Below are positions 3,288-23,592 of a stretch of 23,592 nt of DNA, in pieces (position 1 is the first letter of the stretch; every line of letters begins with the position of its first letter). The DNA lies in the IMG/VR virus record IMGVR_UViG_3300042433_000193, one strand, 5' to 3'. The notes beneath the pieces were generated by a model. It was not told where the DNA came from. It ran no database searches and saw only the letters and a program-made list of their open reading frames with translations. A program made the translations under genes and the position numbers. This DNA comes from an uncultured virus (IMG/VR IMGVR_UViG_3300042433_000193) (taxonomy: Duplodnaviria > Heunggongvirae > Uroviricota > Caudoviricetes).

Positions 3288-3288
3288 T

Positions 3289-4300: not shown

Positions 4301-4302
4301 TT

Positions 4303-4581: not shown

Positions 4582-4617
4582 TTTTATTAGGATTGTCAAT
4601 AAATCAACAGGAGTATC

Positions 4618-4974: not shown

Positions 4975-4996
4975 GCGGTTAGTCTAAAGTTGCTAT

Positions 4997-5029
4997 AATA
5001 GCTGTAAGGATAACTTACAGCTATTTTTT
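4997..5029 (+). terminator. Rho-independent terminator-like hairpin between accessory and tail genes
   Basis: 12-bp perfect stem AATAGCTGTAAG / CTTACAGCTATT, loop GATAA, then a T run. Overlaps TGcTATAAT (4991-4999). Confidence 0.65.
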
Positions 5030-5030
5030 A

Positions 5031-5429
5031 ATGATTAACTGGAATCTAGGAAGACAATTAGCCATTGAGTCTTTTAATGAGATGGTGGGCGAGTTTGCCC
5101 AAGAGATTAACTTTCAGATAGAGGATACTAAATGGAACTGGCCACGGGAGACTGTACGAAAAAACGGTAGTGTAGTTGGCTCACCCCGGGACATTGTAGA
5201 TACAGGTGAGCTAAAAAATAGCCAATTTATTGAAGATGTATCGGATACCTATAAAGTAATCGGTTACACGGCTGATCATGCCGCTCTTGTCCATGAAGGG
5301 TATCAAATAGAGCGTAACAATGGGACGGTAACAGATGTTCCCGCCCGACCTTTTATCGACACGGCTATAGAAGACTATAATCCAATTGAGGCTTATAGTG
5401 AAATCTTAAAGGAAAAATTAAATGAGTGA
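5031..5429 (+). CDS. HK97 gp10-like tail/neck component
   Basis: Motifs VDTGELKNS, A.LVHEG, PARPFI. Located upstream of the tail genes. Confidence 0.75.
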   Translation: MINWNLGRQLAIESFNEMVGEFAQEINFQIEDTKWNWPRETVRKNGSVVGSPRDIVDTGELKNSQFIEDVSDTYKVIGYTADHAALVHEGYQIERNNGTVTDVPARPFIDTAIEDYNPIEAYSEILKEKLNE

Positions 5430-5871
5430 ATCAGAATTAAGAGATATTTTATTAAGCATTAGAAACAATTTAAAGATACTTATCGGCGCTGACTTAGGTA
5501 AATACGAAATAACAAGCCCTACAGGGCAAAATTTAAAAGAAATTGATGCTATTTGGGTAGAGCCTCCTGAATTACCCCCTAACTATAAAGTAAAACCTAA
5601 TAGCGGCATCGAAGCAATTATTCAAAGAGAGCCTAATCCTTATCACGAAAATTTACTAGGATATACCGTAGGTATAAACAACTATTGCATTACCCTAAAA
5701 CAGTACAATCTAGAGAAATCCCTAACACCAGTGATTGAAACACTTAAATCTTCTCGCTACTGGAATTTTCTAGATCAGCCTCGCTTAACCCCCTATACCA
5801 AAACTTCTGAGGGGATTATCAGACCAAAAGCGACCTTTAAAATCACTACTGCTAGGCTTTTAGACTTTTAG
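5422..5871 (+). CDS. Putative tail terminator/completion protein
   Basis: 149 aa, between the gp10-like gene and the tail tube gene. Function from synteny only. Confidence 0.5.
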   Translation: MSESELRDILLSIRNNLKILIGADLGKYEITSPTGQNLKEIDAIWVEPPELPPNYKVKPNSGIEAIIQREPNPYHENLLGYTVGINNYCITLKQYNLEKSLTPVIETLKSSRYWNFLDQPRLTPYTKTSEGIIRPKATFKITTARLLDF

Positions 5872-5933
5872 AGTACACATTTACTAATCTTTTATAGTAC
5901 AATATAACTAGAAAAGTTTAGTCAGTGATTAGA

Positions 5934-6665
5934 ATGTCGAATCAAATTCTAGAATTAAATCGGAGTGACAACCTCACCCCTAGCCGTGATACGCAATTTT
6001 TTATCTCTGGTACTTATGGTTTTGGAGAGGAACCTTCCACACGAGTAGCCGATTTAGGTGGTGCAATCGTCTTAGGTGATTCCACTCTTACCGTGGCGAC
6101 TGGGGGTTTTGGCCGAATTTTATATGCTGGCAATTTAATTTATGTGGGGACTGCCGGTGATTATGTGGTCGTCCGAACAAAAACGACAACGCTAACTCAG
6201 ACAGTAATCCAGATCGAACCTTCCAAAATTGCTACTACCCTTGCTACTCCCGCTCAAAAATGCACAATTAAATCTTGGGCTCCTTTTTTGAGTGCCAAGA
6301 CCTTTAACGTTGACACCTCCTCTACCGAGGTTACTGATTCCGTCTTTGGTGAAATGGCGGTGGAGAAATTTATCTCCGAAATCATGAGTACTGGGTCGGT
6401 ATCGGGTCCGCTTGTATTTGGTGATCCTGGATATGAAATCATAAAGGCCGCAGAGCAAAAAGGTGATCGAATTTACCTTGAAATTGTCTATATGGGACAG
6501 CGCGGCGGCTTAGGTTTTCAGACAAATGTTAGCCAAAATGTTAGTGGTGAAAAAGGTAATTTCCTACAAGGAAACGTAACTCTAACTATTAGTGGCAATG
6601 TGTTTGACATTAAACCGATGGCAACGTCGCCATTCTCTCCTAATGTAGCTGATGACCTCAATTAA
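5934..6665 (+). CDS. Putative major tail (tube) protein
   Basis: About 243 aa, G/T/S/V-rich beta-type sequence, upstream of chaperone and tape measure genes. ATG5934 preferred over GTG5925. Confidence 0.65.
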   Translation: MSNQILELNRSDNLTPSRDTQFFISGTYGFGEEPSTRVADLGGAIVLGDSTLTVATGGFGRILYAGNLIYVGTAGDYVVVRTKTTTLTQTVIQIEPSKIATTLATPAQKCTIKSWAPFLSAKTFNVDTSSTEVTDSVFGEMAVEKFISEIMSTGSVSGPLVFGDPGYEIIKAAEQKGDRIYLEIVYMGQRGGLGFQTNVSQNVSGEKGNFLQGNVTLTISGNVFDIKPMATSPFSPNVADDLN

Positions 6666-6933
6666 AATAGTTAAACTTCTTGTCGATGAAGACCAAGAGG
6701 TAATGTTAGTCAATTCTAGAATAATCAATAATTACCTCTGGTTTTCTTTCGGTACGTTTGATCGAGAAATAAGTCAGCAAGAAAAGATATTAATCGAGCC
6801 ACCAGACGGAACAAAAAATCAAGAAAGAATACAGGTATCTGTAACCCTTGATCCTCTGTGGCTCAATACTGAACAAAGTGCAAAAAGAAACCAAAAGGTA
6901 AAAATAAATGGCGAAGTTAAGCGTATTAGGTAA
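6652..6933 (+). CDS. Hypothetical protein, 93 aa, in tail operon
   Basis: Fills the gap between the tube and chaperone genes and overlaps both. Confidence 0.6.
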   Translation: MTSIKIVKLLVDEDQEVMLVNSRIINNYLWFSFGTFDREISQQEKILIEPPDGTKNQERIQVSVTLDPLWLNTEQSAKRNQKVKINGEVKRIR

Positions 6934-7693
6934 ATTCAAGTTTAATGAAACATTCTTTTTCCCTTTAAAAAAAGAATGGATTTATTACATTCAAGACAAT
7001 GATACTTTATTAGAAAAGATAGACACAATTGCTACAGAAGAAAATGGGGAAATTGGGATTAAATTCTTAAAACGATACGGGATTAATCCAAAGGAAAATG
7101 AAACAGTCAAGGAATACTTAGAGGCACGGGAAAAAGCTGACAAAGCTTATCTTGAGAAAATTAAAGCTATCGGGCAAAAAACGGGACTATCCACTGCTGA
7201 AATTGAAGGAGTAGTAGTTAACGACGGTTCGATCCGAGAACGAATTGAACAGGTCATGGTTGATGCCCTTGACGGGGTAAAATCCGACAGCGTAGAACAA
7301 AAAGTAGAAACCGCCGCTATCGTGCAGCAATCAATTTTAAGCAACCGTAAAAAAACAAGAGAACTAACAAGAGAATCTATAGAACTTGTAGAGCCTTATC
7401 TCGATGAATTAAACGCTTTATTTAAGGATCGGGAAACAACCTACGCAACTTACAATAAAGCCTTGTTAGCTAACTTTCTAGGTAGTCCTCGACGGGTAGT
7501 TAAACTTAAAGATAAATCTTCTGTTGATTTCACCATACAAGACATTAATGATATGTCTCAATTTATGGTAGTAAAACTCTATCAAGACTATCTCTGGCAA
7601 GACATAACCCAGTGGCAAAACCCAGAAACTGAGAAACCAGAGCCTGAAAAATCAGAATCAGAATCAACGGAGGACGACGAAAAAAACGAATAG
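6908..7693 (+). CDS. Tail assembly chaperone (lambda gpG-like)
   Basis: Lies before the tape measure gene, has an acidic C-terminus, and ends at the slippery heptamer A AAA AAC (7681-7687). Confidence 0.75.
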   Translation: MAKLSVLGKFKFNETFFFPLKKEWIYYIQDNDTLLEKIDTIATEENGEIGIKFLKRYGINPKENETVKEYLEAREKADKAYLEKIKAIGQKTGLSTAEIEGVVVNDGSIRERIEQVMVDALDGVKSDSVEQKVETAAIVQQSILSNRKKTRELTRESIELVEPYLDELNALFKDRETTYATYNKALLANFLGSPRRVVKLKDKSSVDFTIQDINDMSQFMVVKLYQDYLWQDITQWQNPETEKPEPEKSESESTEDDEKNE

Positions 7694-8139
7694 ATGACGC
7701 AATTAATGCACGGTTAGAGGCAATTGCTAACCCCATTAATTGGGAAGAAATCTATTACAAATGGTGTGCATGGGGATTATCTATCGAGGAGTGGGAAGAT
7801 TGGCCAGACTGGTTAATCCTGAAAAAATATTCAGGGATTCAAAAAGTCAAATGTGAAGAAATTAATTCACTATCAGGTACGGTTAGTCAGATTGCTGCCA
7901 TGGTTCACGCCTACCTAATAGCACAATCTAAAGAAGGTTCTAAGTCACAAAGTCTTAATCCTAGCGATTTTCTGCCTTACCAGTTTAAAGAAAATAAAAA
8001 ATATTTTCTTGATCAAGAAACCGCTCAAATTCTGTTAGAAGCTATGCAAGCTGGCCAAGTGCCAGTCTTCGCCACTCAGATAATAGTCGATTGCGGACTA
8101 TACGACGAAATAATTCAATTAGTAGGGGAGAAAAGCTAA
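7687..8139 (+). CDS. -1 frameshift extension of tail chaperone (gpGT-like); includes the 7900..8139 ORF
   Basis: The -1 frame is open from 7687 (RIDDAINARLEAIANPINWEEIYYKW...) through ATG7900 to TAA8139, which overlaps the tape measure ATG. Confidence 0.8.
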   Translation, partial: RIDDAINARLEAIANPINWEEIYYKWCAWGLSIEEWEDWPDWLILKKYSGIQKVKCEEINSLSGTVSQIAAMVHAYLIAQSKEGSKSQSLNPSDFLPYQFKENKKYFLDQETAQILLEAMQAGQVPVFATQIIVDCGLYDEIIQLVGEKS

Positions 8140-11100
8140 TGTCTTTATCACTTGGTACTTTAGAAATCGGTCTAGGGCTAAATACATCTCAGTATGATGC
8201 CGGTATCAAATCGGCTAAAGACCAGCTTTCTTCCCTAGAGCAAAAAGTTATTACTCCCAAGGTCGATCACCGTCCGTTAGATGCCTTGAACCAGCATCTA
8301 ACGGTTAAAGAGAATCATTATGATAAACTTAATAAAAAGATTATTGCTCCTAATGTCAATCACGTTGCATTAGAAGCATTAAACGAGTATTTAACTGTTA
8401 CAGAAAAGCGCATCGATGAATTTAATAAGAAAGTCATTAAAGTTCAAGTTGATGACACAGAATTATTGGCACTTCAAAAACAATTAGAAGAAACTCTTGC
8501 TTTACAAAATCAAGTTATTGAGTCTTCTAAAGAAACTACTATTAAGCCAACAACAGACAGTCAAAATCTTACAAAACTTCAAAAAGACCACGAAAAAACA
8601 AATATTGCACAAGAAAAAACAAGAAAAAAAGCCAATCAAAACGTATCAATAACAACAAGTAATCAAAATCTAACAAAACTTGATCAACAGCATAAACAAA
8701 CTCAAATCAAGACAATACCTGTTACAACAGAACAGCAAAGTACGATTCAAAAACCCGGTTCAGTAGAACAACAAAATATAACTCAAAAACCTGTTGCACC
8801 AGAGCAGCAAAATATATCTCAAAGACCCAATATTCGAGGTGGTGGGTTTAGTGCAATGGTGGCCGTGGAGTTATTGTCGCAAATTTTGTCAGGATCATTG
8901 GCCAAAATTTTGTCAGCAGTATTACCAGCAATACTAAAAGTTGCTGAAACTAGAAAGAATTTTGTCAGTGCAGTAATGTCAATGCCTGCCAACTTTTTAA
9001 AGAGCTATTCAGAAGGCGCGGCTTACACTTACGCAGATATATTTACCAGGAATAATATTAAAGCTTTTGACAAAGAAGCAGGAACAAACTTGTATGAAAC
9101 TGGTGGTTCCGATCTTGGTAAGCTTGCTGGGAAAACAGTTAGAAAAGGCAAAACAGTATTAAACGAGCATTTAGAAACTGAATCGGCACAAAAAGGTTCT
9201 GAGGCTATAGCAGACGCAACTAAAAGAACAAAAGAAGAAATGGCAGAATTAAAAAAGTTAGCCATTGAATTTTATAATACTCAAGACCCTAGTAAAGCAC
9301 AAGAGTTAGCAAAACAATTGCTAAAAGTATCTGATTCAATGAGACAAGTTGCAATGTCTCCTATCGATACTTTTGCTAATGCAAGAAAAGAACTAAAATC
9401 AGGTGAGTCTATCGCAAAAGCTAGAAAACAATCAGCAACAGTCCAACTAGACGAAAAAGCTGTAAGTGAAGCAAAAAAAATAGTTTTTGTTTCTGGGGGT
9501 TTTGCTGGTAAACAGGGAGAAGGAAGCAAAGAAATTGCTGAAAATCTTCAACCAAAACTAGAAGATGGGGTTTTAGTTATCCCTATTGCTAATAAAGCAA
9601 CTGATTTAAGTACATCCATTAAAGATAATCCTTTGAAATGGGCTGGTGAAGCAGCCGCTCAAACGGTGGGGCAAGGATTGTCAGGGACTAACGAAGATTC
9701 AGTTTCAATGCTTGCTGCAGTTATCAAGGCTAGAGAATTAAATCCTAATGCTCAAATTGATTTACTTGGTTATTCTGCTGGGGGTTTTGTTTCTGAAGGT
9801 GCGACTAGATTAGCAAACCAAGCTGGTATTGAAAATATAAAAGGGGTAGCTATTGCTACCCCGTCAATGGTCGGGACTACTCAAATAGATAATTTTTCTC
9901 GTTATATGGGAGAAAATGACCCTATTAGACTAGCAGAACAAACTATGGGGGCATCAGATGTATCCAAGCAAAGTCAAGTTATTTCCGGTATTGCGTCACA
10001 TTCTTCTTCTGACTACCTTGAAAACGCAGAAATTATCAAGATATTGAATAAAGAAGTTGATAAATTACAGGAGAATATTGAAGATATTCCTGATCAATTA
10101 GAACTATTTGATATGTCATCTTTGCAATTAAAACAAAGAGAATTAGTAGCTATCGAAACACAGCTAAAAGAAGTCAAAGAAGCTACAAAACCTTTAGAAC
10201 ATTTAAAAGTTGATAGTATAGTAGCAACCAATATTCCTAACATTAAATTAGGCACTGAAGAGAAATCGTTTGAGATTCCTAGTATTAGTTCAAAAAATAA
10301 CCCGTCTAAAAATATAACAACCGACAATAAAGTTAGTAGCAATATAGGTGTTAAAGAAAAAGAACTTGTGTCACTGTCTAAACAGACAAAAGACCTAAAG
10401 TCTTTAATTCAAAGTAATCCTGCATCTGCTGATATTGTTAAAGCACAGGCTCAAACTGACGCAATTAGAAAATGGTTTAGTGATCGTTATCAAAAATTAA
10501 AAACATTAATAGATTCTGGTGAATTAGATCAAGCAAAAAAAGTAGCTAATGAAATATTAGCTGCCAAAGAACAAGCCTCTTCTGATTTAGAAGACATACT
10601 AAAATTACTCAAAGAAGCTGGACAGCCCACTTCTATAGCTTCTGGGGGAGTCGGTGCTTCTGTTCAGTCTGCAAAAGGATACTTAAGTAGTACAGGAAAA
10701 AAAGTTCAGACTGCTCAAGAAACAATTGGTATAAAAGAATTATCTCCTATTAAATCAGGACTAATTCAACAAATTCAGAAAACTGGTGTCGATACTACTA
10801 CAGTAGGCTTTAAGACTCTATTCGCAAAGGCTATAGAACAATCGGCAAAATCAATAGCTTCTGGTGGGAATAAAGAGTTAATAGAGGCTAATTTAGAGAA
10901 ACTAATCTTAAGCTTAAATCCTGTTTTAGCAAATAAAAATAAGACTAAAGGACTTGGCTCTGACATTATAGAAGGGATAAAAATAGGAATTAAAAGCGAG
11001 TCTGGTGATTTAAATGCAGAAATGCGGGAAATTGCTTTAACCTTACCGAAAACAATTAGAGATACACTTGAGATTCAATCTCCATCAAAAGTTATGATGC

Positions 11101-14100
11101 GAATTGGTCGTGACATCAAAAAAGGTTTAATACTAGGACTAGATGGAATAAAAACTGAATTAAAATTTAAGGAGATAGAGATAAAAGATTTTGTCGGGAA
11201 AGTAAAATCTTTAGACCGTGAATCTTTAAAAACTAATGTCCAAAAAGCAGGGAAAGGAATTTTTAATGCACTTCCTAGTAATGTAAGAAATGAAGTAAAG
11301 TTTAGACAATGGGAGATGGAAGAATCTGCTAAACAAATGCAACCCCTAAACCGTGAAACAATAAAAACAAATATTAAACAGGTAGGGAGAAAAGTTTTTA
11401 ATATTGGAGGGATTCTTGATAAAATTGATGATTTTAAAAGTAAAAGTAAGTTAGAGCAACTTAGCACCATTGCTGATAAAGTTCAAAGATCACTTGATAA
11501 ATTACCAGAACCAATTAAGAAAGTTGCTGGACTAATAAGAAACGCAATATTAGGTATAGTTGGTTTTAACATTCTTGAATCAACTATTGGTTTATTAAAT
11601 AAATTTGGAAAAGAAGCTTTTCAAACAGCAATTGAAGCAGAGCGGTTAGAAATGGCTTTATCCTTAACCACAGACGACGCTGAGTCTGCTTTATCTAGGC
11701 TAAAAGTACAAGCAGATAAACTTGGAACATCTTTTTTGTCTTCTGCCAAAAACTATCAGCAGTTTAGTGCTGCTGTAATGAACACTTCACTAGAGTTTCA
11801 AAAAGATAAAATTTTTGAAGGAATAACATTAGGATTGGCTACTAGAGGTGCTAATTCCCAACAGCAAGACAGAGCTTTACTAGCTATTACTCAAATAGCT
11901 AGTAAAGGTCGTGTTTCAATGGAAGAACTTAACTCTCAGTTAGGTGAAGCAATGCCAGGCGCGTTACAGATTGCCGCTAGAGCTTATGGTGTAACGTCTC
12001 AAGAATTTATTAAATTAATTGAGTCTGGATCAGTGGCATCAGATGAATTTTTGTCGAAATTTGCAACTCAAACTACTTTAGAATCAGCAGGAGGGATTAA
12101 TGTAATTAATGACACGGCTTTTGCCCAAGTTGCAAAACTTGAAAATCAATTAAACTCGCTTCGCGTAGAAATGGGAAAACCTTTATTAGAAGTGGCTAAA
12201 TTAGGGATACCTACAGTTATCAGTGGACTTAGGACTTTAGAGGATCATGGAGATAAAATTGTAGCTACTTTTGTTTCGATGGGGATTGTCGTATCGGGTG
12301 TATTTGTTCAAATGTTACACAGGCTTGGTCTTTTAAAGTTAGGGCTAAAAGCACTAGGAGTTACCGCAGCATCTACAAAAGCATCAATTGCACAAATAGG
12401 TATAGGATTTGTTAAAGGGCTAGGATGGACTGCTTTAGTCTTTGGTGTAATGGAAGCTTTTAAAGGGCTTTATCAATACATCAACGCAGGCTCCGAAGAG
12501 TCTAAACGATCCCTTAAATCAACTCAAGAATCGTTACAAGAATTGAGACGATTACTAGAAAAACCTTTACCTATACCTAAAGCTTCTACTGTTATAACTG
12601 ATAGTGCAACCGCAATTCAGCAATTTAAAAACAACAGAGAAAGAGATAAAAGTTTAGAGTTTACTGCGGGGGGACTAAGTGATACAACACAAATCTTAAA
12701 ATTATCAACTGACACATTTAGTGATACAAAGATTACCGAATTTACGGGTAAACTTGACACATTGCGGCAAAAAGCGAAAGACCTCAAGATAGATGAAATC
12801 ATAGCTAGTGGAGATGCTGACGTTAAAAAAGCTACATCTGTTCGTCAAGAAATTGCGAAAGTAAACCAAGAAATACAAGCTTTAACGGAAAAATACTTTC
12901 CTCAAATTGGGCTTATTGTTAATGAGATAGCATCTACAGAAGAAAGAATTACAGCAATTAAAAAAGTTTTAGATGATCCAGAGTCTTCTAATTCCCAAAA
13001 AGATAATGCTAGTATCCAGCTAGAAATTACTGAAGTTCAACTTAGAAAATTAAAAGAATCGCAAGAAAAATATAACGAAGCAGTCAAAGAGAATTTAGTC
13101 AACTATCAACGATTAACAGAACAAATAAATAAAGTAGCAAGAGCTTTATCTAATATTGAATTTGTCTCTAGTGGTCGAACTATTTTGTCTGAAACAGATA
13201 TTAAACGACAAGTTTTATCTGGGAACCTGAAGCCGTTTGAAATAGACTTGACCGTTAGAGAACAGAGCCTATCTATTGTCAAGGATCAGTTTAATTCGCT
13301 TAATGGATTACTGGCAACTAAAGAAAAAGAATTACAAAACACTCTAACAGATCAGATTAATCAGCGAATAACTGAGTTAATGCCTGAATTAAATGGAATA
13401 GATTTTAGAACGGCATTACAGCAGGGAAGTGTGTCACCAGAAGCTATAGGTGATCGGTTACAACAGTTGGGAGATCAAGTGCCTTTTGAATTAGAACAGG
13501 TATTAGAAACAGCTAAACAGCAAGCATCTATTAGACGACAAACTTTAACTATTGATAAATCAATTGTTGATACAGAACTAGAAATTGCTAACGCTAGACG
13601 AGAGCGCGCAAGAAATGCCAGACAAGCATCAATAGTCGGTGCCAATGTCAACGAGAGAATTGCTACTTTAAGGCAATTACCCTTTGGGGGGCCAGCCGCT
13701 TCCTATCGGGATGCCTTATCAGAAGTTCGCAACCAAGAGAGATTGTTAGGAGAGGCTTATCGTCGATTAGAAAGTGCGTCAGACGACCCTAATGTGATTC
13801 AGCAAGAGGTTGATAATACCCGATTAGCCCTAGAACAAGCCCGCGCTAACCTATTACAGCAACAAACATCACTACAAGACTACTACCGCAACCTTGACCG
13901 TCAGATAATCGACTTTAATCGTCAGATTGAAGATTATAGAAGACAGATTGAAGATGCTCAACTGTCAGCTTTTAGAGAAAATCGTTCTCTATCTGAAAGT
14001 TACACTGATTTAGTCAGGGAACTCGATAAGAACCTCTTAAATGCCCAAAATCAGCTACTGGATGCGACCGATAGAATCAGGGTACAGCAAGTTAAAAACC

Positions 14101-17100
14101 GTTTATTAATACCCGGTACAAGCGACGCTGGTAAAGAATTAGGCGACATTTTCCTAGAATTTGTACAGGGACAAGCTGATATTGCTAGTCGCGGACGCAC
14201 CTTCCAATCCCGAACCGAGGAGATAGAAACTTCCTATATCTCTACTCTAAGAAATATCCGTAACTTACAAGAGCAACAGCAAGACGCTGAAAGAAACCGA
14301 CTAAAAACGATTGAGGATATTAAACGGACTCAGGAAGACCTCAATCGTACTCTAGCTGATTTAATCCGACAAACCAATAAAGAATTAGGCTTTATTCCCC
14401 AATCAATCAAGGATATTGTCACAAATCTTAATACACTTCCAGAACCAATTAAATTAATCAATTCTGAGTTAGTGGCTATTCCCCCAAATATTAAGACTTC
14501 TGGGGAAGACTTAGTAAAAAGTATAGAAGAAACTGCGGAGGCAATTAGAAAAGCTAAGGGAGGTTTAATACTACCAGCACCTAATAATTTCACCCCTGCT
14601 CCTGTGTGGAATGGGGGAGGGTTTTTACCGCCGCCACCGCCACAGTTGTCTTCAATTCCCAAAGGGTTAACACCACGCGGTCAAGAATTATCTCAGCATT
14701 TAAACAATCCTCACGTCAAGGCCTTTCTTGATATTATTGCTTACGCAGAAGGTACTGCCAATATGCCAAATAAGGGATATAACACTCTTTTTGGACATGG
14801 ACAATTTAGTTCTTTTGCAGACCATCCACGCCAAAGAATCCCGTTTGGATCGACCAGTTCATCGGCATCTGGAAGATACCAGATTATGGATTTTACATGG
14901 GATGAAGAAAAAGCGAAATTAGGATTAAAAGATTTTTCTCCTGTCTCTCAAGATTTAGTCGCATTAAGCCGGATTTTAATGAGAGGTGGATTAGACGAGC
15001 TTCTTAAGGGAGATATTCGTGGGGCAATTAACGCAACCCGCAAAGAATGGGCATCTTTCCCAGGGGCTAATTACCCAGGGCAAGGTATGAAACGGATGGA
15101 AGACCTGTTAAAGGTTTACGATCAGTCTTTACGAAAATACCAACCAAATGCCCCTCGTACTCAATCCGAACTAGACGCACTGCGATATGACGGCAATCCT
15201 GCTAACAGCGGAGCATCAAACCGTATTCGACAAATCAGAAGAAATCAAGGCGGTTCACCCACTCCATCAACTTCCACCCCTAACCCTTCTCCATCAGTTC
15301 AGCAACAAATCACCAACAGATTACCAAAAAATATTCAATCTGTTTTAGTTCAAGAAGTTGGCGGAAAAACTGTATATTCTAAAAATGCTCAAACACCCCC
15401 AGCGTCACCAGCTAGTACAATTAAAGTTATTATTGCTGATTTGATTGCCAAAGAAATAACAAGCGGAAAACTTTCCTTAAAAGATGCTATCGCCATAAAA
15501 TTGCCTTTGGTTGATCCACACGGACAATTAAAAGCCAATCAAGTTAAAACAGTTGAACAGCTAGTACAGTTAATGCTAGAAAAGTCAGATAATACGGCAA
15601 CTAATGTTTTAATTGATCGGCTAGGTGGGCTAACCAAAGCTACAGAATTAGCCAGAAAAGAAGGTTATAAAAACACTACTATTTCTAGGTATTTAAATAT
15701 ACCAGGCAGTGGAACTCCAAACATTTCAACAGCACAAGACGTAACGTTAGCTATGCAGTCTTTAATTAAAAATCAAAATCCTGCAAGTCAATTAGCTGAA
15801 CAATCTCTGAGACAAACAAGAAATTTTAAGTATAATAATGAAATCGGCGGAAAAATTGGAAATAACTCTAAAGTTATTGGTAACGTTGGACTGGTAAACA
15901 TTAATGGGAAAGAATATATTGTAACTGCTTATGCAAACATTAACGGCAATCAACTAAATAATCGAAAAATAATAACTAATGCTACTAATGCAATTAGCCA
16001 ATCCATTAAAGACTCCACCCCTAACCCTTCTCCTGCCCGTGTTTTAACAAAAGAAAAAACAAAAGAAGGAAAAGGCGGTCCAGAATTTAGTAGTCCTCCA
16101 CCTATAGCCCAATTACCGGCTCTACCTAATCAAAACCGAGATAACTTCTGGGATGCCGATTTACCACCGGTTCCTAAAGACAATCCGATTAACTTCCAGA
16201 GTCCTAATTTACCTCCCGTTCCTAATCTTCCTACGGGTAATCTTGATGCGGCCGCTGATCAAATTCGCAACGCTGAAACAGCCAACCAAAACGCTGAGGA
16301 GTTTTCAAGACGGCTAGAAGAGCAACAAAATCTAAACAATGCTCTTGACAGATCAATGAAATTTAGACGGCAGCAAGAGGAAGATGCCCGTGCATTAGAA
16401 CGTACTTTAAGAGATGCTTCCGAAAATGTTGCTGATTTGACTATCAACTCTAAAGGGTATTTGACAGTACAAGAAGAAATTAATAAGAGTGCTACAGAAG
16501 TCTCTCGACAATATCGCTCTCAGATTGAATCACTAGAAGACCAGCGACGGACTTTACTTTTAAATGCTGAGGCTCAACAAAAATACAGCGACGCAATAAA
16601 AGAAATCTTAGGAGAATTTCAAAGAAAAGGCATAGCTCTCCCCCCTGAATTTCTCAAAGAAATGACAGATAGTATTGATGCTTTAGCTAAAAACGCTGAA
16701 TTAGCTAAAGAACAAGTAACAATTCTTGATCAAGCAATTGAACAATTAGGCAGAAATCAGGGAGTAGCTACCTTGGAAGCATCATTTAGAAAAACCAGAG
16801 ATACAGTCAGGAGTATTCGTGATCGGTTAAATGATTTAACTATCCAAAGAATGCAACTAGAATTTCAGTCTGGTTTTGGATTATTTGATAATTCTGCTAT
16901 CCTTGCCGAACGTATTAGCCTACAAAAAGAAAAAGAGGAACTAGAGGATTATTTAGAACCTTACAAAGACTTGCCACAGTACGCTGAATATGTGGCTAAT
17001 ATTCGCTCGGAATGGGAAAAACTTGCAGAATTAAGATTAGAACGAGCGGAGTTAGACGCTTCCCCAAATCGTGGCGCAGCTGAAAGCTTTTTCTCTGACA

Positions 17101-17915
17101 TTAGAGAAGGAAAAGGAATAGGATCAGCTTTTAGTAGTCTTGGATTAAATATTATGACAAAATTTGTTGAGGGTATTACCAAGCCTGCTATTGATGCTCT
17201 AACTTCTGCTATCGATGGATTTACAAAGCCAATTACTCAAGCTTTTGAATCGCTATTTAATGCAATCATCGGGCCAGTAGGCAATTTCTTCACTAACGCT
17301 CTAAACAGTATCTTTAAACCAGCAGGTAACATCTTTTCTTCTATTTTTGGTGGCGGTGGCGGAGGTGGCTTATTTAATGGACTACTTAGCGGAATAACAG
17401 GGATTTTTAGTGGAGGACTTGGGGGACTTGGTTCGATTGGATCACTTGGTAGTGTAGGAGCCTCTAGCTTTGCTTCTGCTCCGGCTTCTGCCTTTTCTCT
17501 AGGTACAGGATTCAGCCTATTTAGTGATGGTGGGAAAGTTGGAGATGCTAATGTTCCGATAGAGAAAAATATCATTTCAGCTTTTCAGCGTGAACGAGCA
17601 ATGTCGGGAGGCCGAAAACCTCGATTAATCGTAGCCAATGAAGATGAATTAATTCTCAACCCTAAAGAAACAGAAGCCTATCTAGACTACAGAAATAATG
17701 CTCCTATTAAGAACTATGCTAATGGAGGATTTGTCGGGGGTAAGCCTAATTACTCCACAACCTCAAATAACAATAGCTCTAATCAGTCTTTGGTAATTAA
17801 TAACACCAATAACGTGACTGTAGAATCACGGAATGATATGGGTTATAGTTTGAATCAATTGAAAGAACGGGAAAATACACAAAATGAACGAACTAAAAAA
17901 CGATTCTTTGGGTAA
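8139..17915 (+). CDS. Tape measure protein, 3258 aa, with embedded hydrolase, lysozyme and beta-lactamase-fold domains
   Basis: ATG8139 (TAATG overlap, GGGGAG RBS). Tape-measure motif [44 protein letters not shown], long coiled coils, Gly-rich C-terminus. Confidence 0.92.
   Translation: [3258 protein letters not shown]
9477..10050 (+). other. Alpha/beta hydrolase (lipase/cutinase-like) domain in the tape measure protein
   Basis: IVFVSGG; nucleophile elbow [10 protein letters not shown] (9768-9782); VAIATP; GENDPI (Asp 9918-9920); His 9999-10001. Confidence 0.75.
14700..15140 (+). other. Lambda R-like lysozyme/lytic transglycosylase domain in the tape measure protein
   Basis: [13 protein letters not shown] (Glu 14748-14750), YNTLFG, F.DHP, SASGRYQ, DFSP.SQD, EWASFPG..Y.GQ. 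Confidence 0.9.
15273..16033 (+). repeat. 20-bp perfect direct repeat TCCACCCCTAACCCTTCTCC at 15273-15292 and 16014-16033
   Basis: Two identical copies 741 bp (247 codons) apart, both encoding STPNPSP and bracketing the beta-lactamase-fold domain. Confidence 0.9.
15320..16010 (+). other. Class A beta-lactamase/PBP-like serine hydrolase domain in the tape measure protein
   Basis: PASTIK (SxxK, 15414-15425), SDNTATN (SDN, 15585-15593), STAQD, GKIG (KTG-like, 15852-15860). Confidence 0.85.
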
Positions 17916-18315
17916 TCAAATTGTTACCGAAGCTCTTGAATGGCTCGGTACTCCTTGGTTTCATGGTCAATCGCTTAAAGGGATTGGAACCGATTGTGTA
18001 GGATTTATCGCTGGCGTAGGGATTGAAGTCGGATTCTTGCCCCATGATTTCATTATTGAAAACTATGAACGGATTCCCCGGAATAACTTCTTAGTCAAAT
18101 TTCTTGATCGGTTACTAGATAGAGTTGAAGGTGATTTGTGTAAAGGAGATATTTTGATGTTTCGTAAGTCAGGAGTAAATGGTCATGTGGGGATTTATCT
18201 GGGAGATAGTGAGTACATTCACGCTGACTCAATAAATGGCGTGATGAAGACCTATATTCATGAATACCCGCCTGTACTAATTTATCGAGTACCTACTTTA
18301 GGAGTGGTAAAATAA
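17884..18315 (+). CDS. NlpC/P60 family cell-wall peptidase (phage tail-associated)
   Basis: A..WLGTPW.H...KG.GTDCVGFI (catalytic Cys), GDILMF, GHVGIYLG, YIHA. Confidence 0.9.
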   Translation: MNELKNDSLGNQIVTEALEWLGTPWFHGQSLKGIGTDCVGFIAGVGIEVGFLPHDFIIENYERIPRNNFLVKFLDRLLDRVEGDLCKGDILMFRKSGVNGHVGIYLGDSEYIHADSINGVMKTYIHEYPPVLIYRVPTLGVVK

Positions 18316-18350
18316 TAGAAAGCTACCTTTATCCCTTTGCCCCAAACAGA

Positions 18351-19031
18351 ATGACAACGATACTTAGAATAGTACAGCAATTTTTAGACTCTGGCAATAG
18401 TGATAAAGCTAGAGAAGAAATTGATAGAGCTTTCGGCAATCTGAAAAAGGTAGATAGTCATGTTAGAGAGTTTGCCGCTCTGTTGACACTGGGATCGATC
18501 GAAGCTTTAGAAATCGGATTAGGAGTATTGGGACGTAAGCTTCTACAGAATGACAGCGAGATTAATAATGAGGTTGTTTGGTTATTTATTGCGTCAATTT
18601 TATCTCGCAATAGTATTCCCGCTGATAGTCCATCTAGAATCAGCCTACTTGTTCTTACCGCTTCTGTCAATAGTTGGGAATTACCAATTTTTGCGCTTCT
18701 TGCCCCTGCCCTCGACGCTTTTTTTAAAGTTAGTCTTGCGGACGGAACCCCTTTAATTGCCGAACAAACTCTTGATTTTTTGACCACTTGGGGAAGAATT
18801 TATGCTAAAGCACCTCATGTCAAAACACAGCTTCAAGAACTTCAATCTCTTAGTAATAATCTATTAGAGCAAGTAGATGACTCAGAGTTAAAAGCTGAAT
18901 GGTCAGAGGGAATTAATATATTTTTTGAAGAAGCCAGTACAACCAAATATTCCGATAGTAATGTTTTTTCTGATAGTGGAGAATTGATTAAAAAAATTTA
19001 TTCGTTTTTGGATCGTGAAAAGTTAGAATAA
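18351..19031 (+). CDS. Hypothetical alpha-helical protein, 226 aa
   Basis: Long Leu/Ala-rich ORF with no recognised motif. Confidence 0.65.
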   Translation: MTTILRIVQQFLDSGNSDKAREEIDRAFGNLKKVDSHVREFAALLTLGSIEALEIGLGVLGRKLLQNDSEINNEVVWLFIASILSRNSIPADSPSRISLLVLTASVNSWELPIFALLAPALDAFFKVSLADGTPLIAEQTLDFLTTWGRIYAKAPHVKTQLQELQSLSNNLLEQVDDSELKAEWSEGINIFFEEASTTKYSDSNVFSDSGELIKKIYSFLDREKLE

Positions 19032-19057
19032 GTTTACACAATAGAGGAGGATTGATT

Positions 19058-19279
19058 ATGTCCTGGTTAGATAGATTAAAACAAGAGAAAACGGAGCTTG
19101 AAGAAAGGCTAACTGCTTTAAACAAGGCGTTGGAATCGCCACATGAAAGCATTTCATTAGAGCAACTAGCTCTTTTGGAACAGCAATCAGAGGCAATGCA
19201 AACGTATTTAGATATTTTGGTAAAGCGTTTATCGTTAATAGAAAGCGCCAATTCAAAAATGAAGTGCATCAATGTCTGA
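19058..19279 (+). CDS. Small coiled-coil phage protein resembling the crAss001_48-like family
   Basis: GAGGAGG RBS before ATG19058. RLKQEKTELEERL..L.....LL.QQ..AM..Y..IL..R pattern recalled for this family. Confidence 0.6.
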   Translation: MSWLDRLKQEKTELEERLTALNKALESPHESISLEQLALLEQQSEAMQTYLDILVKRLSLIESANSKMKCINV

Positions 19280-19435
19280 TAATAATTCATAGAATACCTC
19301 AAAAGAGGTTCGATAGTCAAGACATTTTCGAGGACGATGATTAATTAATTCTACAGCTTTTTAAATCGGCGTAGTCCCTGTCACAGTTAAAATCATTAAG
19401 TATGATGGAGAGTTTAACTTAACGAGGTGTCTATC

Positions 19436-19663
19436 ATGTCCACTGCCCGCCATATCCTAGCACTTCTAAAAAGTCATGTAGAAGGAGAAGATCAGCAATT
19501 TTATTCTGATCCCCTACAGATGGCTGCACACGAAGCAAGACAAGGACATGGTAAGTTAGCCCAAGAAATTTGCGAATTAATTGACCAAGCAAAGGCTAGT
19601 AGATCGGTTATTGAAAAAAATCTGATCCAATTCCCTTAGTACAACCAAAAGGATTTTGGTTGT
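19436..19663 (+). pseudogene. N-terminal remnant of an AAA ATPase of the type paired with S8 peptidases (IetA-like)
   Basis: MSTARHILALLKSHVEGEDQQFYS..LQMAAHEARQGHGKLAQEI.ELID. Frameshift in the A-run near 19614-19620 continues as KSDPIPLVQPKG, then similarity ends. No Walker motifs. Confidence 0.65.
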
Positions 19664-19741
19664 CAATAAGGTTATTTACAATCAAATTAGAAGAAGACAC
19701 TAGATATACTTAGCATATTTAAATTAAATACTGCTATCTGC

Positions 19742-22042
19742 TTAGATAATCGTTGCCAGTGATTCTTTAAAAGGCACTGGATAGCTTGAATTTTGAAAAA
19801 CTCGTACTGTGTAAGCCGATTGGACTGACCCCCAATCGGCTATTTGTTGTGCCTCTGTGTAAACGACGCTTCGGGCTGACAATACTGACCATTCTCGTTT
19901 TATTGTGTTTCCATCGTAAATTCTAACTACATAGCTGTCCAACTCTCCTGCTGCGTAAGCAATATCAATATAGTCGATCCAACGACCATCTAACCGCGTC
20001 CGTCGATACCAAGTAATAATTAAATCGTTGTTATCTTTTTCCCCTCTTACAGCGCAAGGGAAGGGCTTCAATCCTTCTAAGGTGATTGTGTGAGAGACTT
20101 CCTCCTCTATATCAGTTTCAAGTAATCCATTAGGAACTACTTTTAATAAATATTCTCGATTAATATCAGAAAGATTTAAGGGGTATCGAACTAAATAATT
20201 AGTTAGTAACACGAATTTTTCTCCTATTATATGCCTAGAGATAGCCGGTTCAGTTCCTTTGACTCCACGAATTGTATATGAAATATCAAAGGTTAGGGGA
20301 TTATTGGACACAATAGCAGCATTTTTAAAAGCTATAATTTCTCCAGTAGAAAACCAGCCTAATTGTTTGCCTGATAGAAATGTTTCAAGAGTAACTGGCT
20401 CTAATTGCCCTGAATTCATGCTTACTCGTATCCAATTTGAATCGTCAATAAAACTAGGAGAAGCGTTGTTAAAATTTGGGGAGAAGCTTAATACAGTACC
20501 AGTTACGCTGTTGGCAATGTTGCCAACAGCAAAATCATAGCTTAATCCGTTGTCATCAGAATAAAATAATGCTCCTCTGTTAAAACTAGAGTTACCTTCA
20601 ATCGCCACATAAATTCCCATGTCTGCATCTCGGCTACTAACTATTGGGCATTCAATAGGAATAGCGTTAGCGCGTCCGTAGGGACGAGGAATGTTATTGT
20701 CTGGTGGAAATTCGTTATAGGGACGAGGAATGTTATTGTCTGGTGGAAATTCGTTATCTACAGGAATATCTGGTAAATATCCTACTCCTTGAAATCGAGT
20801 AGCTTCAATTTCAATTAAATAATTTACTCCTCTTACTTTCTTTGTAATTTGCATCAATTCTTGATGATAATTGTTATTATTATCAGTAAAAATTATATCC
20901 CCAACCTTTAAATTTTCCCATGCTGGTAATAAAAACATTTTTGAAAAAGTTTTTGATTGCGTTTTCCCTAAAAAAAGAATTTTTGAGGCAATATTCATGA
21001 AAAACATATCTATATCTATTAGCTTAGTTTGAAAACTAAACTCGTTTGTGTGAGTATCTGATGGGTCTTTAGCTACTGCGGTAATAGTTTCATAATTTTT
21101 TAAAACATTTAGCCCAGATACCGTAACAGCACTAGGGGTTTCTCTAAAATGAGTCAGTTTTTTTTCATTAAGGTCAATAGGATTTTCTCCAAATTTTTTA
21201 GACCCAAAAGAGCTTTTAGGGATAAAAATAGGATCAGATGATTGTTCTTGTCTTTTAAAAATGATTTTATCTTTTGGCTCCCCTGTCACAATAAAAAAAG
21301 CTCTCATAAGTTCTTCTAACTGATCAGCAAAAGATGTCCCATCAAACAATAAATCAAATCCTTGAATTTGGTAATCATTAGGAATATCAGTTACGTCAAT
21401 TTGATCGTCTGTTCTACCAGCTAATTTACAAATAGTTTTCAAAATATTTTTTATTTTTGGATTGTTTCCACTTTCTCCAATCACTTCAATATCAATAGTA
21501 GGAAATCCAGTGCCGTCGTAATTAGCAATCGGATAATTATTAAAAAGTAAAAAAGACATTCCAGTAAAAGCAGGTACTGGGTTGGATTCTTTTGACTGAA
21601 TTACTGACGATGGTGTAGTTTGATTGCCAGTATAAATAGTTGTGTGTTCAATAAATTTTAGGCTTTTTTCGTCATTGGTTTCAGAGTTGTAAACAAGGAC
21701 GCTATTCATCCAAACTCGCCTAACAGAGCCAATTTTTCTAGCAATTGGATAAGCGGCTGTCAAAAAATAAGTGTAAACTTCGGTAGTTTGCCCACCACCA
21801 CCACCTTTTCCGCCTTGTCTTTCGGACGTGACGACTTCCTTAAGAGGAATCCCCCACATCATAGTTAGCCCTTCTTTTCTCACCCTTCCAAAAGGATAGG
21901 ATAGGCTTCTGCCGTATTCAGCATCGGGAACACCAGTATCCTCAATTTTTCCTTTTTGTTGGGTAGGGGGTTTAGGAGCAAATAGAGATAATAATAGGTT
22001 AGCTCCGATCCCTATTGCTACGGGAATGAGAAAAGTAGCCAC
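19742..22042 (-). CDS. Phage tail tip/host-specificity protein (GTA-like baseplate/central tail protein), 766 aa
   Basis: GTG start. AEYGRSL.YPFGRVR, GGKGGGG..T..Y.Y, I..VRRVW, IYTG.QT, PAFTG, RGVKGT, H..GEKFVLL, LIITWYRRTR motifs typical of this family. Confidence 0.8.
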   Translation of the reverse strand: MATFLIPVAIGIGANLLLSLFAPKPPTQQKGKIEDTGVPDAEYGRSLSYPFGRVRKEGLTMMWGIPLKEVVTSERQGGKGGGGGQTTEVYTYFLTAAYPIARKIGSVRRVWMNSVLVYNSETNDEKSLKFIEHTTIYTGNQTTPSSVIQSKESNPVPAFTGMSFLLFNNYPIANYDGTGFPTIDIEVIGESGNNPKIKNILKTICKLAGRTDDQIDVTDIPNDYQIQGFDLLFDGTSFADQLEELMRAFFIVTGEPKDKIIFKRQEQSSDPIFIPKSSFGSKKFGENPIDLNEKKLTHFRETPSAVTVSGLNVLKNYETITAVAKDPSDTHTNEFSFQTKLIDIDMFFMNIASKILFLGKTQSKTFSKMFLLPAWENLKVGDIIFTDNNNNYHQELMQITKKVRGVNYLIEIEATRFQGVGYLPDIPVDNEFPPDNNIPRPYNEFPPDNNIPRPYGRANAIPIECPIVSSRDADMGIYVAIEGNSSFNRGALFYSDDNGLSYDFAVGNIANSVTGTVLSFSPNFNNASPSFIDDSNWIRVSMNSGQLEPVTLETFLSGKQLGWFSTGEIIAFKNAAIVSNNPLTFDISYTIRGVKGTEPAISRHIIGEKFVLLTNYLVRYPLNLSDINREYLLKVVPNGLLETDIEEEVSHTITLEGLKPFPCAVRGEKDNNDLIITWYRRTRLDGRWIDYIDIAYAAGELDSYVVRIYDGNTIKREWSVLSARSVVYTEAQQIADWGSVQSAYTVRVFQNSSYPVPFKESLATII
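20679..20757. repeat. 39-bp tandem duplication (NEFPPDNNIPRPY x2)
   Basis: tagggacgaggaatgttattgtctggtggaaattcgtta occurs twice in tandem, in frame. Confidence 0.95.
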
Positions 22043-22200
22043 GGCTTTTTAAAAGATAGTATTTTCTCTATTCTAAGTGGATTGGGCTAGATTTGCACTA
22101 GCGTGGAATTACTCTACAGATTTACAGTCTGTCGCCTTCGACTACTCGGCCACCAATCCTTGTTTAAATTTATCTTACTATAATTCTTAATGCTTGTCAA

Positions 22201-22746
22201 TCATATTGGTTTTTGATTTTCTTGATTCTTTTGAGATTCTTGCAAATTAAGAAGTTGAAGCATTGCTTCTCCTGCGTCTTTACGCGCCATGTTACAAGTC
22301 CAGAGTCTTTGTTCATTGCGCTTGATAATGATAATTTCTGTATTAGAAACTAAACAAACTAAACCATTTTTCTGTTTTATTAGTTGATTAATAGCTTCTA
22401 ATTTTTGCTTTTGTTCTAATTCAGAAACGGGTTGAGGGTTTTCTCCATACTCTTGTGTGGAGAAAACAACAGCTAACATAAAACTTTTTGTTTCTTTAAA
22501 CTGAAAACGAATAATCTGCCAACTAAATTCACCATCAGGCTCTAATTCTCGATTCCAAATATTTAGAAACCTTTCTAAATAACCTTCTAATCCTTTTTGA
22601 GTTTGACGGTTTTTATTAATATCACTGAAAAGTCCTTGATGCTGTTGAGGATAGTTTTCAACAGGTTTTACTGACTCACTGTCTTGAATAGAGTAAGAAT
22701 GACAAGAATTAAATGGAAATATAAAGGGCATATTGTTTGCTATCAA
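22201..22746 (-). pseudogene. Probable C-terminal fragment of a cyanobacterial N6-DNA methylase/R-M protein
   Basis: C-terminal EIIIIKRNEQRLWT..MAR.DA...MLQ resembles the end of such enzymes as recalled. No methylase motifs in the ORF and a poor start context. Confidence 0.4.
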
Positions 22747-22793
22747 GATATTAGGAAAGTTTAATAATTTGTTGCAGATTAACTATATTAGAT

Positions 22794-23108
22794 TTATTCT
22801 CTGTAAAAATTAAGATTACACCAAAAGGAATCTTTCCAAAAATTTATCAATTTTATATTTTTTTCAGCTATTAATTTTCGCCAAAGACGAAAATTCTCAA
22901 AAAAATTATACCATCCAAAAGGAACATCTTCTCTAAGGGTAGTCCAAATAATAGGTAAATAGCTGTCGATAGGTTTATAAAGTTTGTTACAAACATAAAT
23001 ATAAAAACCAAAAGACAAAGTGTAAAACAACCCTTTGGTGATTAACATAAATCCCCACGCAGAAATTAAAAGCAAATTCAAGATTAAGGTTATCGGTTTT
23101 ATTTTCAT
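22794..23108 (-). CDS. Small membrane protein, 104 aa
   Basis: Hydrophobic N-terminal stretches (ITLILNLLLISAWGFMLI, LFYTLSFGFYIYV). Confidence 0.55.
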   Translation of the reverse strand: MKIKPITLILNLLLISAWGFMLITKGLFYTLSFGFYIYVCNKLYKPIDSYLPIIWTTLREDVPFGWYNFFENFRLWRKLIAEKNIKLINFWKDSFWCNLNFYRE

Positions 23109-23299
23109 TTTTGGACTTCAATAGATTTTAAAGTTATTACTACATTACTTTACCACAATTAAAGTTATTTGTCTATAACTTTGATAAAAAAATAAATTAG
23201 ATTTATCTTTTCTGCCGTCAGTGTTTTGATTTTCATTAAGATTTCTACTAATTTATCCTTAAGTTCTTTTTTAGTGGGTTCTGTGTTAGTTGGTTTATA

Positions 23300-23467
23300 C
23301 TTGCAATCTACTTAACAAGTCAAGCCGATTGTTACAAAATACCATGATTAAGCGATAAATAGCCTTTACCCTGTCTTGCAATCTACTTAACAAGTCAAGC
23401 CGATTGTTACCGGCACGGTATCGCTGCTAATTGGTTCGTTTGTACTGAACTTGCAATCTACTTAACA
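23300..23467 (-). CRISPR. CRISPR array: two full 36-bp repeats, one truncated repeat, two 39-bp spacers
   Basis: CTTGCAATCTACTTAACAAGTCAAGCCGATTGTTAC at 23300-23335 and 23375-23410, first 18 bp again at 23450-23467. Spacers 23336-23374 and 23411-23449. The reverse complement ends ATTGCAAG, like the ATTGAAA(C/G) 3' handle, so - strand orientation is inferred. Confidence 0.85.
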
Positions 23468-23592
23468 GGCGTTGTCAGACAGAAAGATGAATCAAGCAGA
23501 AACGCAGGGAATAGGAACATCCTTAAACTTGAGGTAATGAATAAGAAGCCGAATTGAGTGCTCTAACATTTCGACAGATTTTGAATAGCAGA
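23468..23592 (-). mobile_element. End of an IS1-family insertion sequence, inserted into CRISPR repeat 3
   Basis: Minus strand 23590..23492 encodes CYSKSVEMLEHSIRLLIHYLKFKDVPIPCVSA*, typical of cyanobacterial IS1 InsB C-termini. The element end GGCGTTGTCAGAC begins exactly where repeat identity stops. Confidence 0.8.

Follow-up and report, generated by a model that had tools for sequence, protein, structure and literature searches.

A truncated CRISPR array in a cyanophage tail module, read as the distal end of a type V-U2 (C2c8) locus

The window analysed here, a 23,592-nt stretch of DNA from an uncultured virus of the Caudoviricetes (IMG/VR IMGVR_UViG_3300042433_000193), ends just beyond a short run of CRISPR repeats situated next to phage tail genes, with no cas gene in view. 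Which CRISPR system do these repeats belong to, is it carried by the phage itself, and at what might it be directed? We read the window as containing the effector-distal array end of a phage type V-U2 (C2c8) locus, a cassette within the tail module of a siphovirus-like cyanophage with a genome of about 88 kb and, most likely, Microcystis as its host, and put the probability of this reading at roughly 0.8.

The array in the window and the sequence that ends it

The features of the window are as follows.

8091..18315, plus strand: a 3274-aa tape measure protein carrying TMP_3 and beta-lactamase-like domains, then an NlpC/P60 tail peptidase
19742..22042, minus strand: 766-aa tail tip or host-specificity-like protein, by a domain match (Rcc01698_C)
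22077..22159, minus strand: phage tRNA-Tyr (GTA)
22201..22746, minus strand: 181-aa ORF of cluster c4, part of a conserved cassette, with a weak, sub-threshold N_NLPC_P60 match
22794..23108, minus strand: 104-aa small membrane-like ORF of cluster c0, a conserved neighbour distal to the array
23165..23299 (approximate), minus strand: remnant of a small ORF of cluster c20, its 5' part missing, abutting the array; whole in relatives (ORF 2319-2516 of locus L006)
23300..23335, minus strand: CRISPR repeat 1, the same as the array repeats in 47 other loci
23336..23374, minus strand: spacer 1, 39 nt, also in the L006 array and in the arrays of five IMG/VR contigs
23375..23410, minus strand: CRISPR repeat 2, identical in sequence to repeat 1
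23411..23449, minus strand: spacer 2, 39 nt, unique to the window
23450..23467, minus strand: repeat 3, interrupted by an insertion after its initial 18 nt as read on the plus strand
23468..23592, no strand assigned: one end of a mobile element present in multiple copies, probably an IS, that interrupts repeat 3; found on a separate, deeper contig with several left contexts

The window holds a CRISPR array, defined as two or more near-identical direct repeats of 23-50 nt with unique spacers of comparable length between them. The two complete copies of the 36-nt repeat (CTTGCAATCTACTTAACAAGTCAAGCCGATTGTTAC, at 23300-23335 and 23375-23410) are 100% identical, and the third matches at 61% over 36 nt, being exact for 18 nt and then giving way to unrelated sequence up to 23592. 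The first-pass annotation had described identical 36-bp repeats with two 39-bp spacers, had quoted the repeat on the minus strand with a CAATC/GATTG symmetry at its ends, and had placed the array about 1.3 kb from the tail tip gene. These descriptions hold, in that the quoted repeat is the correct reverse complement, the symmetry is present and the distance is 1258 nt from the start of the 19742-22042 gene, and to them the third repeat, truncated at 18 nt, can be added, as the annotated end coordinate already implied. If the array is read in the gene sense, repeat 1 is the terminal repeat, since it corresponds to the one farthest from the effector gene in relatives. An Rfam search over the window returned the tRNA only.

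The sequence following repeat 3 is informative about how the array ends. In sequencing run X1, the probable source run, which contains 94% of the stretch's words, the 125-nt tail sits on a separate 1064-nt contig that starts exactly at 23468 and has a depth of 288, as compared with 51 for the phage flank. The tail has three different left-hand contexts in X1, with two contigs besides the window's ending at the same base. We conclude that the tail probably represents one end of a mobile element, an IS, that exists in several copies and has entered repeat 3, and the IS that had earlier been placed past the array is supported both by this copy number and by a boundary common to other contexts. 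The tail found no match among the related loci, a 31-mer from it had no match in IMG/VR, and five records gave no real match; 85 nt of it weakly resemble, at 74% identity, a part of the Stanieria plasmid AP017376 that is rich in transposases. It also occurs in contigs of two RNA libraries, contigs that carry no strand or level information and that we do not take as a sign of expression.

The junction could alternatively be an artefact, with the join of repeat 3 and the tail being a chimera formed at a repeat and the true array continuing. CRISPR repeats often break metagenome assemblies, the tail is five to six times as deep as the phage flank in X1, and one further X1 contig goes from repeat 2 directly to the C2c8 flank. 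However, a 115-nt unitig of depth 47, near the 51 of the flank, spans 23382-23496, taking in spacer 2, the 18-nt stub of the repeat and 29 nt of tail sequence (slightly short of the 31-nt bridging rule), the break falls inside the repeat rather than at its edge, and a boundary at 23468 common to two other contexts is expected of the end of a mobile element. We thus regard an artefact as rather unlikely and favor insertion of a mobile element into repeat 3. By itself the window contributes little, being a two-unit remnant severed by this element, and we can only infer the window phage's own effector, as no sequence is readable to the right of 23592.

The C2c8 effector and the phages that carry it

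The 36-mer, or its 23-nt prefix, is present at 47 other loci, one in genome_contigs, eight distinct loci in metagenomes and 38 in IMG/VR, with L007 and L035 representing one contig present in two collections; chance would give far fewer occurrences. Their arrays contain one to 15 repeats at spacings of 54-80 nt, with single outliers of 95 and 311. In relatives the array does run on rightwards, where further repeats had been thought worth seeking. At two loci (L011 and L014) there is one repeat and no spacer. A search of 185,579 species representatives identified no host array with the exact repeat, the sole occurrence being in one phage-like contig, and the repeat sequence was not found in the literature searched.

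Next to the array in these relatives is a gene for a compact type V effector of the kind that the first-pass annotation had suspected beyond the right edge. At L014, an ORF at 5449-7152 (minus strand, 567 aa) has its stop codon inside the adjacent repeat, and scores 370.8 bits on the NCBIfam model NF038192 (V_cas_c2c8, with a curated cut-off of 350) and 219 bits on NF040570 (guided_TnpB). The frame has 569 codons, corresponding to 558-567 aa depending on the start codon, and the Pfam domains of the protein are OrfB_IS605 and Cas12f1-like_TNB. Thirty-two loci extend 1710 nt or more beyond the right side of the array; in 29 of them an intact C2c8 gene abuts it, and these genes encode 20 distinct proteins that are mutually at least 97% identical. 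In the other three the gene is lost or broken, by a 1489-nt deletion that takes most of it in L020 and L026, both of which carry the window's spacer 1, and by an interruption in L051. The 115 nt adjoining the array are 95.7-100% identical in 44 loci.

In an alignment of 40 sequences the RuvC residues D282, E371 and D471 are invariant, as are the zinc-ribbon residues C443, C446 and C461, and C464 is at least 90% conserved; the RuvC D-E-D triad split by a zinc-ribbon/TNB insert, a general type V (Cas12) feature, is therefore present. The nearest named proteins are cyanobacterial C2c8 proteins with at most 50% identity, and the 98%-identity cluster of the effector has 147 members, all from ENA assemblies. 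C2c8, above the same cut-off, is encoded in all five of the long phage records, Cas1 was found in none of five phage records, and Cas2 in none of five other records. The layout in the relatives is that of V-U2, with a single TnpB-like effector beside the array and no adaptation or other cas genes, and on protein family and gene order together we assign the system to subtype V-U2, which the first-pass annotation could not assign from the repeat alone. The window holds a two-unit, IS-interrupted distal remnant of a phage array of this type. A further 78 viral C2c8 loci were identified, with the array downstream of the gene in 21 of the 29 examined, and gene and array co-vary as pairs over at least five repeat families. 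We found no report of C2c8 protein activity in the literature searched.

An IS200/IS605 transposon was also considered for this locus and rejected. There is no TnpA-like ORF in the 10-kb flanks, no IS ends were seen, and the locus shows no multi-site mobility, occupying one syntenic site in the 88-kb phages and one other site in a 34-kb phage type.

The genomic setting is clearly that of a phage. The array is internal in four phage genomes of 82.8-90.6 kb (CheckV completeness 91-100%), where it lies in the tail module, between tail genes and replication or regulatory genes, and the ends of G023 overlap to give a unit of about 88.4 kb. The first-pass annotation had proposed a phage-borne array and had named as its alternative an ordinary host locus outside a prophage boundary; the proposal is upheld and the alternative fails, because the array sits inside near-complete phage genomes. 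The record nearest to the window (G001) is 100% identical to it and ends at about 21735, before the array, and the closest relative with an array (G032) is 99.4% identical to window positions 18622-23299 and has an intact effector gene. The conserved order is host-specificity gene, small ORFs (clusters c6/c4, c0 and c11/c17/c20), array and a 122-aa ORF (c1), in gene-cluster maps that omit ORFs touching the array, the effector included. Past c1 there are two alternatives, either Rha, NlpC/P60 and a tape measure gene, or an RDF-like Gp3 protein and further genes. The c0 ORF (22794..23108 in the window) has no Pfam match. The tail tip protein has only distant matches, to GTA host-specificity proteins of alphaproteobacterial phages at less than 30% identity, and no cultured relative was found for a tail-module protein of the window. 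The same system is also found at the contig end of a second, unrelated siphovirus-like phage (G028; 34 kb, rated 100% complete), with genes for a capsid, a 3489-aa tape measure protein, a baseplate and an M15 peptidase.

Guide scaffold, spacers and targets

In the loci with the window's repeat, which we refer to as A-type, an anti-repeat lies inside the 3' end of the effector ORF, 145 nt upstream of the first repeat in the effector sense, and pairs over 28 of 30 nt; at L014 it occupies 5598-5627. Its score of 45 (null 15.1 +/- 1.9) was reached by none of 300 shuffles, and the search for a tracrRNA recommended earlier has in this way yielded a candidate near the array in relatives. Corresponding segments were identified at the C2c8 locus of the Aphanizomenon phage CL131 and with other repeat types.

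CL131: 147 nt upstream; score 27, reached by 0 of 300 shuffles
D-type: 135 nt upstream; z 6.3
L167 type: 146 nt upstream; z 3.7
C-type: 133 nt upstream; weak, not significant alone
B-type: 171-179 nt upstream; weak, not significant alone

The repeats differ, and each has its own anti-repeat at a near-equal distance, so that repeat and anti-repeat co-vary as entire segments. The anti-repeats in four repeat families, at 135-147 nt, predict a tracrRNA-like scaffold, and an anti-repeat encoded near the array, as in the tracrRNA-dependent type V subtypes (V-B, E, F, K, N and P), is present in the relatives. A 260-nt RNA in the gene sense folds with -76 kcal/mol (z -3.73, equalled in 0 of 200 shuffles), as compared with a z of -1.46 for the opposite strand; the CL131 fold is no better than shuffles (z 0.70). 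Mismatch patterns in the A-type duplex favor the gene sense weakly, and those of CL131 slightly favor the other strand. Rfam searches of the L014 gene-array region gave only sub-threshold noise. One 139-nt contig from an RNA library contains 31 nt of the repeat and 108 nt of the scaffold; it has no strand or level information, and we do not count it as evidence of transcription.

From these elements a plausible mode of action can be proposed. The locus would be transcribed in the gene sense, which is the minus strand of the window, and the last 180 nt or so of the effector ORF would double as a tracrRNA- or omegaRNA-like scaffold. The anti-repeat would pair with the repeats, in cis for the first unit and in trans for the others, and the repeat-spacer guides would steer the RuvC nuclease to PAM-flanked DNA. 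The role that we envisage is in conflict among mobile elements sharing one host, as a phage spacer matches a rival phage and a plasmid V-U2 array matches these phages.

The evidence for that role comes from the spacers and from a second system. The relatives' arrays contain 110 distinct spacers, mostly of 34-39 nt, in 31 distinct arrays, and about 270 spacers were collected over the A to E types together. In two sister phages (L040 and L052) a second C2c8, of 629 aa, lies immediately upstream of the first system and is accompanied by a separate array built from 37-nt repeats, the B-type, and this second effector scores 463 bits on NF038192; the c0 ORF follows this second array also. The B-type effector is 89% identical to the C2c8 of plasmid p1 of Microcystis aeruginosa NIES-2481 (WP_238999151), and the 37-nt repeat is identical. 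The plasmid array has 23 repeats and 22 spacers, five of which match phages of our analysis. Every one of the seven window-family genomes has a helicase gene matched by spacer 4 (4-6 mismatches in 36 positions), the 34-kb phage type is matched by spacers 14, 15 and 16 with 2-5 mismatches, and spacer 2 matches G028. The plasmid spacers and the B-type likeness together indicate Microcystis as host, and we consider it the most likely host of the window-type phage on these sequence matches. A metagenome-assembled genome labelled Crocinitomicaceae (G002) was rejected as host: it has no phycobilisome gene, and C2c8 is absent from 20 of 20 relatives of it; its C2c8 contigs are read as mis-binned phage DNA.

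The plasmid protospacers are also suggestive with regard to guide orientation. A GTC or GTT precedes four of the five when they are read in the effector sense and one of the five in the reverse sense, which supports effector-sense guides with a 5' PAM and suggests 5'-GTN as a candidate PAM of the B-type system. For the A-type, one of about 112 spacers has a target in the searched data: a G028 spacer matches 37 of 37 positions in the tape-measure gene of G023 and G024, where the 5' flank is AAT, not GTN. No protospacer was found for spacer 1 of the window in IMG/VR, INPHARED phages or PLSDB plasmids. The 26-nt end of spacer 2 has no exact match in IMG/VR, and spacer 2 is unmatched in INPHARED phages, PLSDB plasmids and the 11 phage sequences of the analysis, so that the comparison of the window's spacers with phage sequences, from which targets had been hoped for, gave none for either spacer in IMG/VR or INPHARED. 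More broadly, 31 A-type spacers (14 from L040, two from the window, eight from L015 and seven from L027) have no protospacer among PLSDB plasmids, the L040 and window arrays have none among INPHARED phages, and exact 26-mers of both window spacers, of spacer 17 and of one spacer shared by A- and B-type arrays returned array copies or nothing from IMG/VR.

How the arrays acquire spacers bears on this picture. The A- and B-type arrays, with unrelated repeats, share spacers from the same protospacers at offsets of 1-5 nt, which suggests independent capture through shared adaptation machinery. The conserved spacers tend to be the gene-proximal ones, the reverse of what acquisition at a leader end would normally give, and this counts against our best explanation.

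It should be considered whether the system serves interference at all, or is instead a regulatory or host-takeover device, or a TnpB-like homing device, with guides directed toward host DNA or its own empty site. L011 and L014, with a single repeat and no spacer, resemble a TnpB omegaRNA whose guide comes from the flanking sequence, and most spacers have no known target. A regulatory role was proposed by the CL131 authors in the part of their report available to us (PMC6293099), and the accessible text on the Microcystis phage Mic1 places the TnpB-like gp49 among the earliest transcripts, with its disruption cutting the burst from about 450 to about 2 (PMC11237433). However, the 31 distinct arrays together hold 110 distinct spacers, which speaks for a diversifying targeting repertoire, the RuvC residues are all conserved, and the targets found, among the phage and plasmid sequences searched, are phage genes only. 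We accordingly give a role outside interference a small chance, and retain interference between mobile elements as the preferred reading.

Least probable, with a very slight chance in our view, is an orphan phage array served by the host's Cas6 and a type I-D or III-B system, the TnpB-like gene being an unrelated IS passenger: in 29 of 32 loci the C2c8 gene runs directly into the array, its stop codon falling within the first repeat, gene/array pairs co-vary across at least five repeat families, anti-repeats match at a fixed distance, no TnpA or IS ends were seen at a position that is fixed and syntenic, and the exact repeat is in no host array among the species representatives, the one phage-like contig apart. 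The points in its favor are that the sequences closing the minus-strand repeat (ATTGCAAG) and the B-type repeat (ATTGAAAC) resemble the 8-nt handle of Cas6-processed repeats, that spacers of 35-39 nt are long for type V, and that no adaptation genes were found in the phage records searched for Cas1 and Cas2. Aphanizomenon hosts, according to the part of the CL131 report available, have III-B and I-D systems (PMC6293099).

Returning to the phage-encoded V-U2 system, a more far-reaching scenario can be put forward, tentatively and with considerable doubt. In Microcystis blooms, two phage lineages, with genomes of roughly 88 and 34 kb, may share V-U2 systems of the same family with a host plasmid, and all three may aim them at one another. 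Their arrays would diversify quickly without cas1 and cas2 of their own, presumably through host adaptation in trans; such borrowing is suggested by the capture of the same protospacers independently, with offsets of 1-5 nt, by unrelated repeat families. The disordered C-terminal tail of the effector could furthermore be dual-coding, with the DNA specifying the tracrRNA-like scaffold and a peptide with a terminal QLxLW motif, through which the nuclease might attach to the sliding clamp of the host. Ecologically, phages and plasmids that share a toxic, bloom-forming host may be turning one and the same miniature nuclease against each other, and such conflict could shape which phage wins during a bloom.

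Comparison with known systems

The kind of system described here is already known, from the V-U2 locus of CL131 and from annotated C2c8 proteins. What our comparisons would add at the level of the family is a probable link to Microcystis as host through plasmid spacers, support across repeat families for the predicted tracrRNA-like scaffold, GTN as a candidate PAM of the sister B-type system, and one apparent case of phage-against-phage targeting. We found no paper on the locus of the window's phage family in the literature searched; a 2022 survey in Cell of virus-encoded CRISPR systems may list V-U2 phage loci. V-U2 is a type V subtype listed in 2017, for which no biochemistry was found in the same literature. 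The natural variants in this phage family (20 effector sequences, 31 distinct arrays, and deletion and IS-disrupted forms), together with the predicted tracrRNA, the candidate sister PAM and a concrete host, make the subtype directly testable.

The closest parallel is the Aphanizomenon phage vB_AphaS-CL131 (MG209611), in which, as far as the available part of the report describes it, a type V-U2 locus has 10 spacers and 36-nt repeats, and whose authors reported no tracrRNA and did not settle the direction (PMC6293099). Like the A-type locus it is cyanophage-borne, with a single TnpB-like effector whose 3' end faces an array of 36-nt repeats and without further cas genes. Both repeats have the same ends, CTTGC...AAC when read on the plus strand, and differ in their cores, and the anti-repeat lies 147 nt from the array in CL131 and 145 nt in the A-type. 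The CL131 effector is the best match from a cultured phage, with 37.8% identity over 89% of the length, but the CL131 locus adjoins the terminase, whereas the A-type locus is inside the tail module. The C2c8 of NIES-2481 plasmid p1 is of the same family and has the same gene-then-array layout; it differs in being only 30% identical to the A-type effector, in being plasmid-borne, and in having spacers that target the phages described here.

We also note a resemblance to Cas12p, the 'Cas12 hacker' of type V-P, which the portion of the preprint available to us presents as a phage-encoded miniature Cas12 of 500-700 aa located beside tail genes and employing a tracrRNA, a repeat of 37 nt and GTN as its PAM, and as an early TnpB-Cas12 intermediate (bioRxiv 10.1101/2025.01.20.633832). 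The A-type effector aligns with Cas12p (PDB 9jfs) in the RuvC/TNB part only (residues 274-468, E 2.6e-25), and the B-type effector does so with an E of 1e-19. Since only the RuvC part aligns, we consider Cas12p to be an analogue belonging to a different family.

Another comparable arrangement is that of TnpB and its omegaRNA, with which Cas12n (V-U4) is grouped. The likeness of the C2c8 locus to IS200/IS605 TnpB is in the RuvC and zinc-ribbon core (PDB 8h1j, E 4.5e-20) and in a guide scaffold that overlaps the 3' end of the ORF. C2c8 differs from TnpB in having a multi-spacer array rather than a single flank-derived guide, and a protein about 150 aa longer than a typical TnpB. In the table of a 2024 review, as available to us, V-U2/C2c8 is given without size or PAM. 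A 2023 survey, in its accessible portion, regards the V-U variants as repeated transitions from TnpB to Cas12, with arrays that may derive from omegaRNA.

Cassette arrangement and the neighbouring phage genes

The cassette (window 18324-23467, compared with 1-10500 of the related phage record G023 and 21450-30615 of G032) contains a host-specificity gene, a tRNA, small ORFs, the array, the gene for the TnpB-like type V-U2 effector C2c8, and a member of the flanking gene cluster c1. In the window, in G032 and at the related array-bearing loci L037, L042 and L014, the cassette is inverted and lies on the opposite side of gene c14 relative to its arrangement in the phage records G023, G026, G030 and G031, and each of the two arrangements is seen in several independent contigs. 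The tape measure genes of these phages are giant and highly variable in size:

window 8091-17915, tape measure gene, 3274 aa
G023 10483-26469, tape measure gene, 5329 aa
G024 66559-79830, tape measure gene, 4424 aa

The N-terminal two-thirds cannot be aligned between the window and G023, and it is the variable part of the tape measure gene that is the target of the phage-derived spacer. We also note that window 2677-3234 encodes a protein with an FGE-sulfatase (formylglycine-generating enzyme-like) domain (Pfam E 1.9e-39), homologues of which (cluster c25) are present in sister contigs.

Tandem systems and common protospacers

Two V-U2 systems are arranged in tandem in some of the sister phages (L040:12870-15565; L056:1-2928). 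Next after each array comes a homologue of c0, the small membrane-like ORF at window 22794-23108, as if effector gene, array and c0 formed a three-part module. The A-type arrays, which have the repeat family of the window, and the B-type arrays of the second system have unrelated repeats and contain some spacers from the same protospacers. Two such pairs (L038 and L174, L033 and L176) have the same sense, with offsets of 1 and 5 nt, and a third (L051/G031 and L168/L170) has opposite sense.

Several short phage-like contigs bearing C2c8 genes and arrays belong to G002, a MAG labelled Crocinitomicaceae:

C124, C205 and C362 (= L006, L056 and L057), contigs with C2c8 and arrays

The C2c8 family is absent from each of 20 relatives of G002, and these contigs are therefore probably mis-binned cyanophage DNA.

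The effector C-terminus and single-repeat loci

The C-terminal ~40 residues of the effector hold a QLxLW or QLxLxLW peptide in 21 of 40 aligned relatives by the strict pattern, and in about 33 by eye. The DNA coding for this peptide directly adjoins the first repeat, and variability of its middle residue among the aligned relatives suggests that not only the RNA but also the peptide is under selection. At L011 and L014 the effector gene is followed by one repeat, without a spacer:

L014:5449-5480, effector C-terminus (QLxLW/QLxLxLW region)
L014:5417-5452, single repeat

This layout resembles that of TnpB with its omegaRNA and a flank-derived guide.
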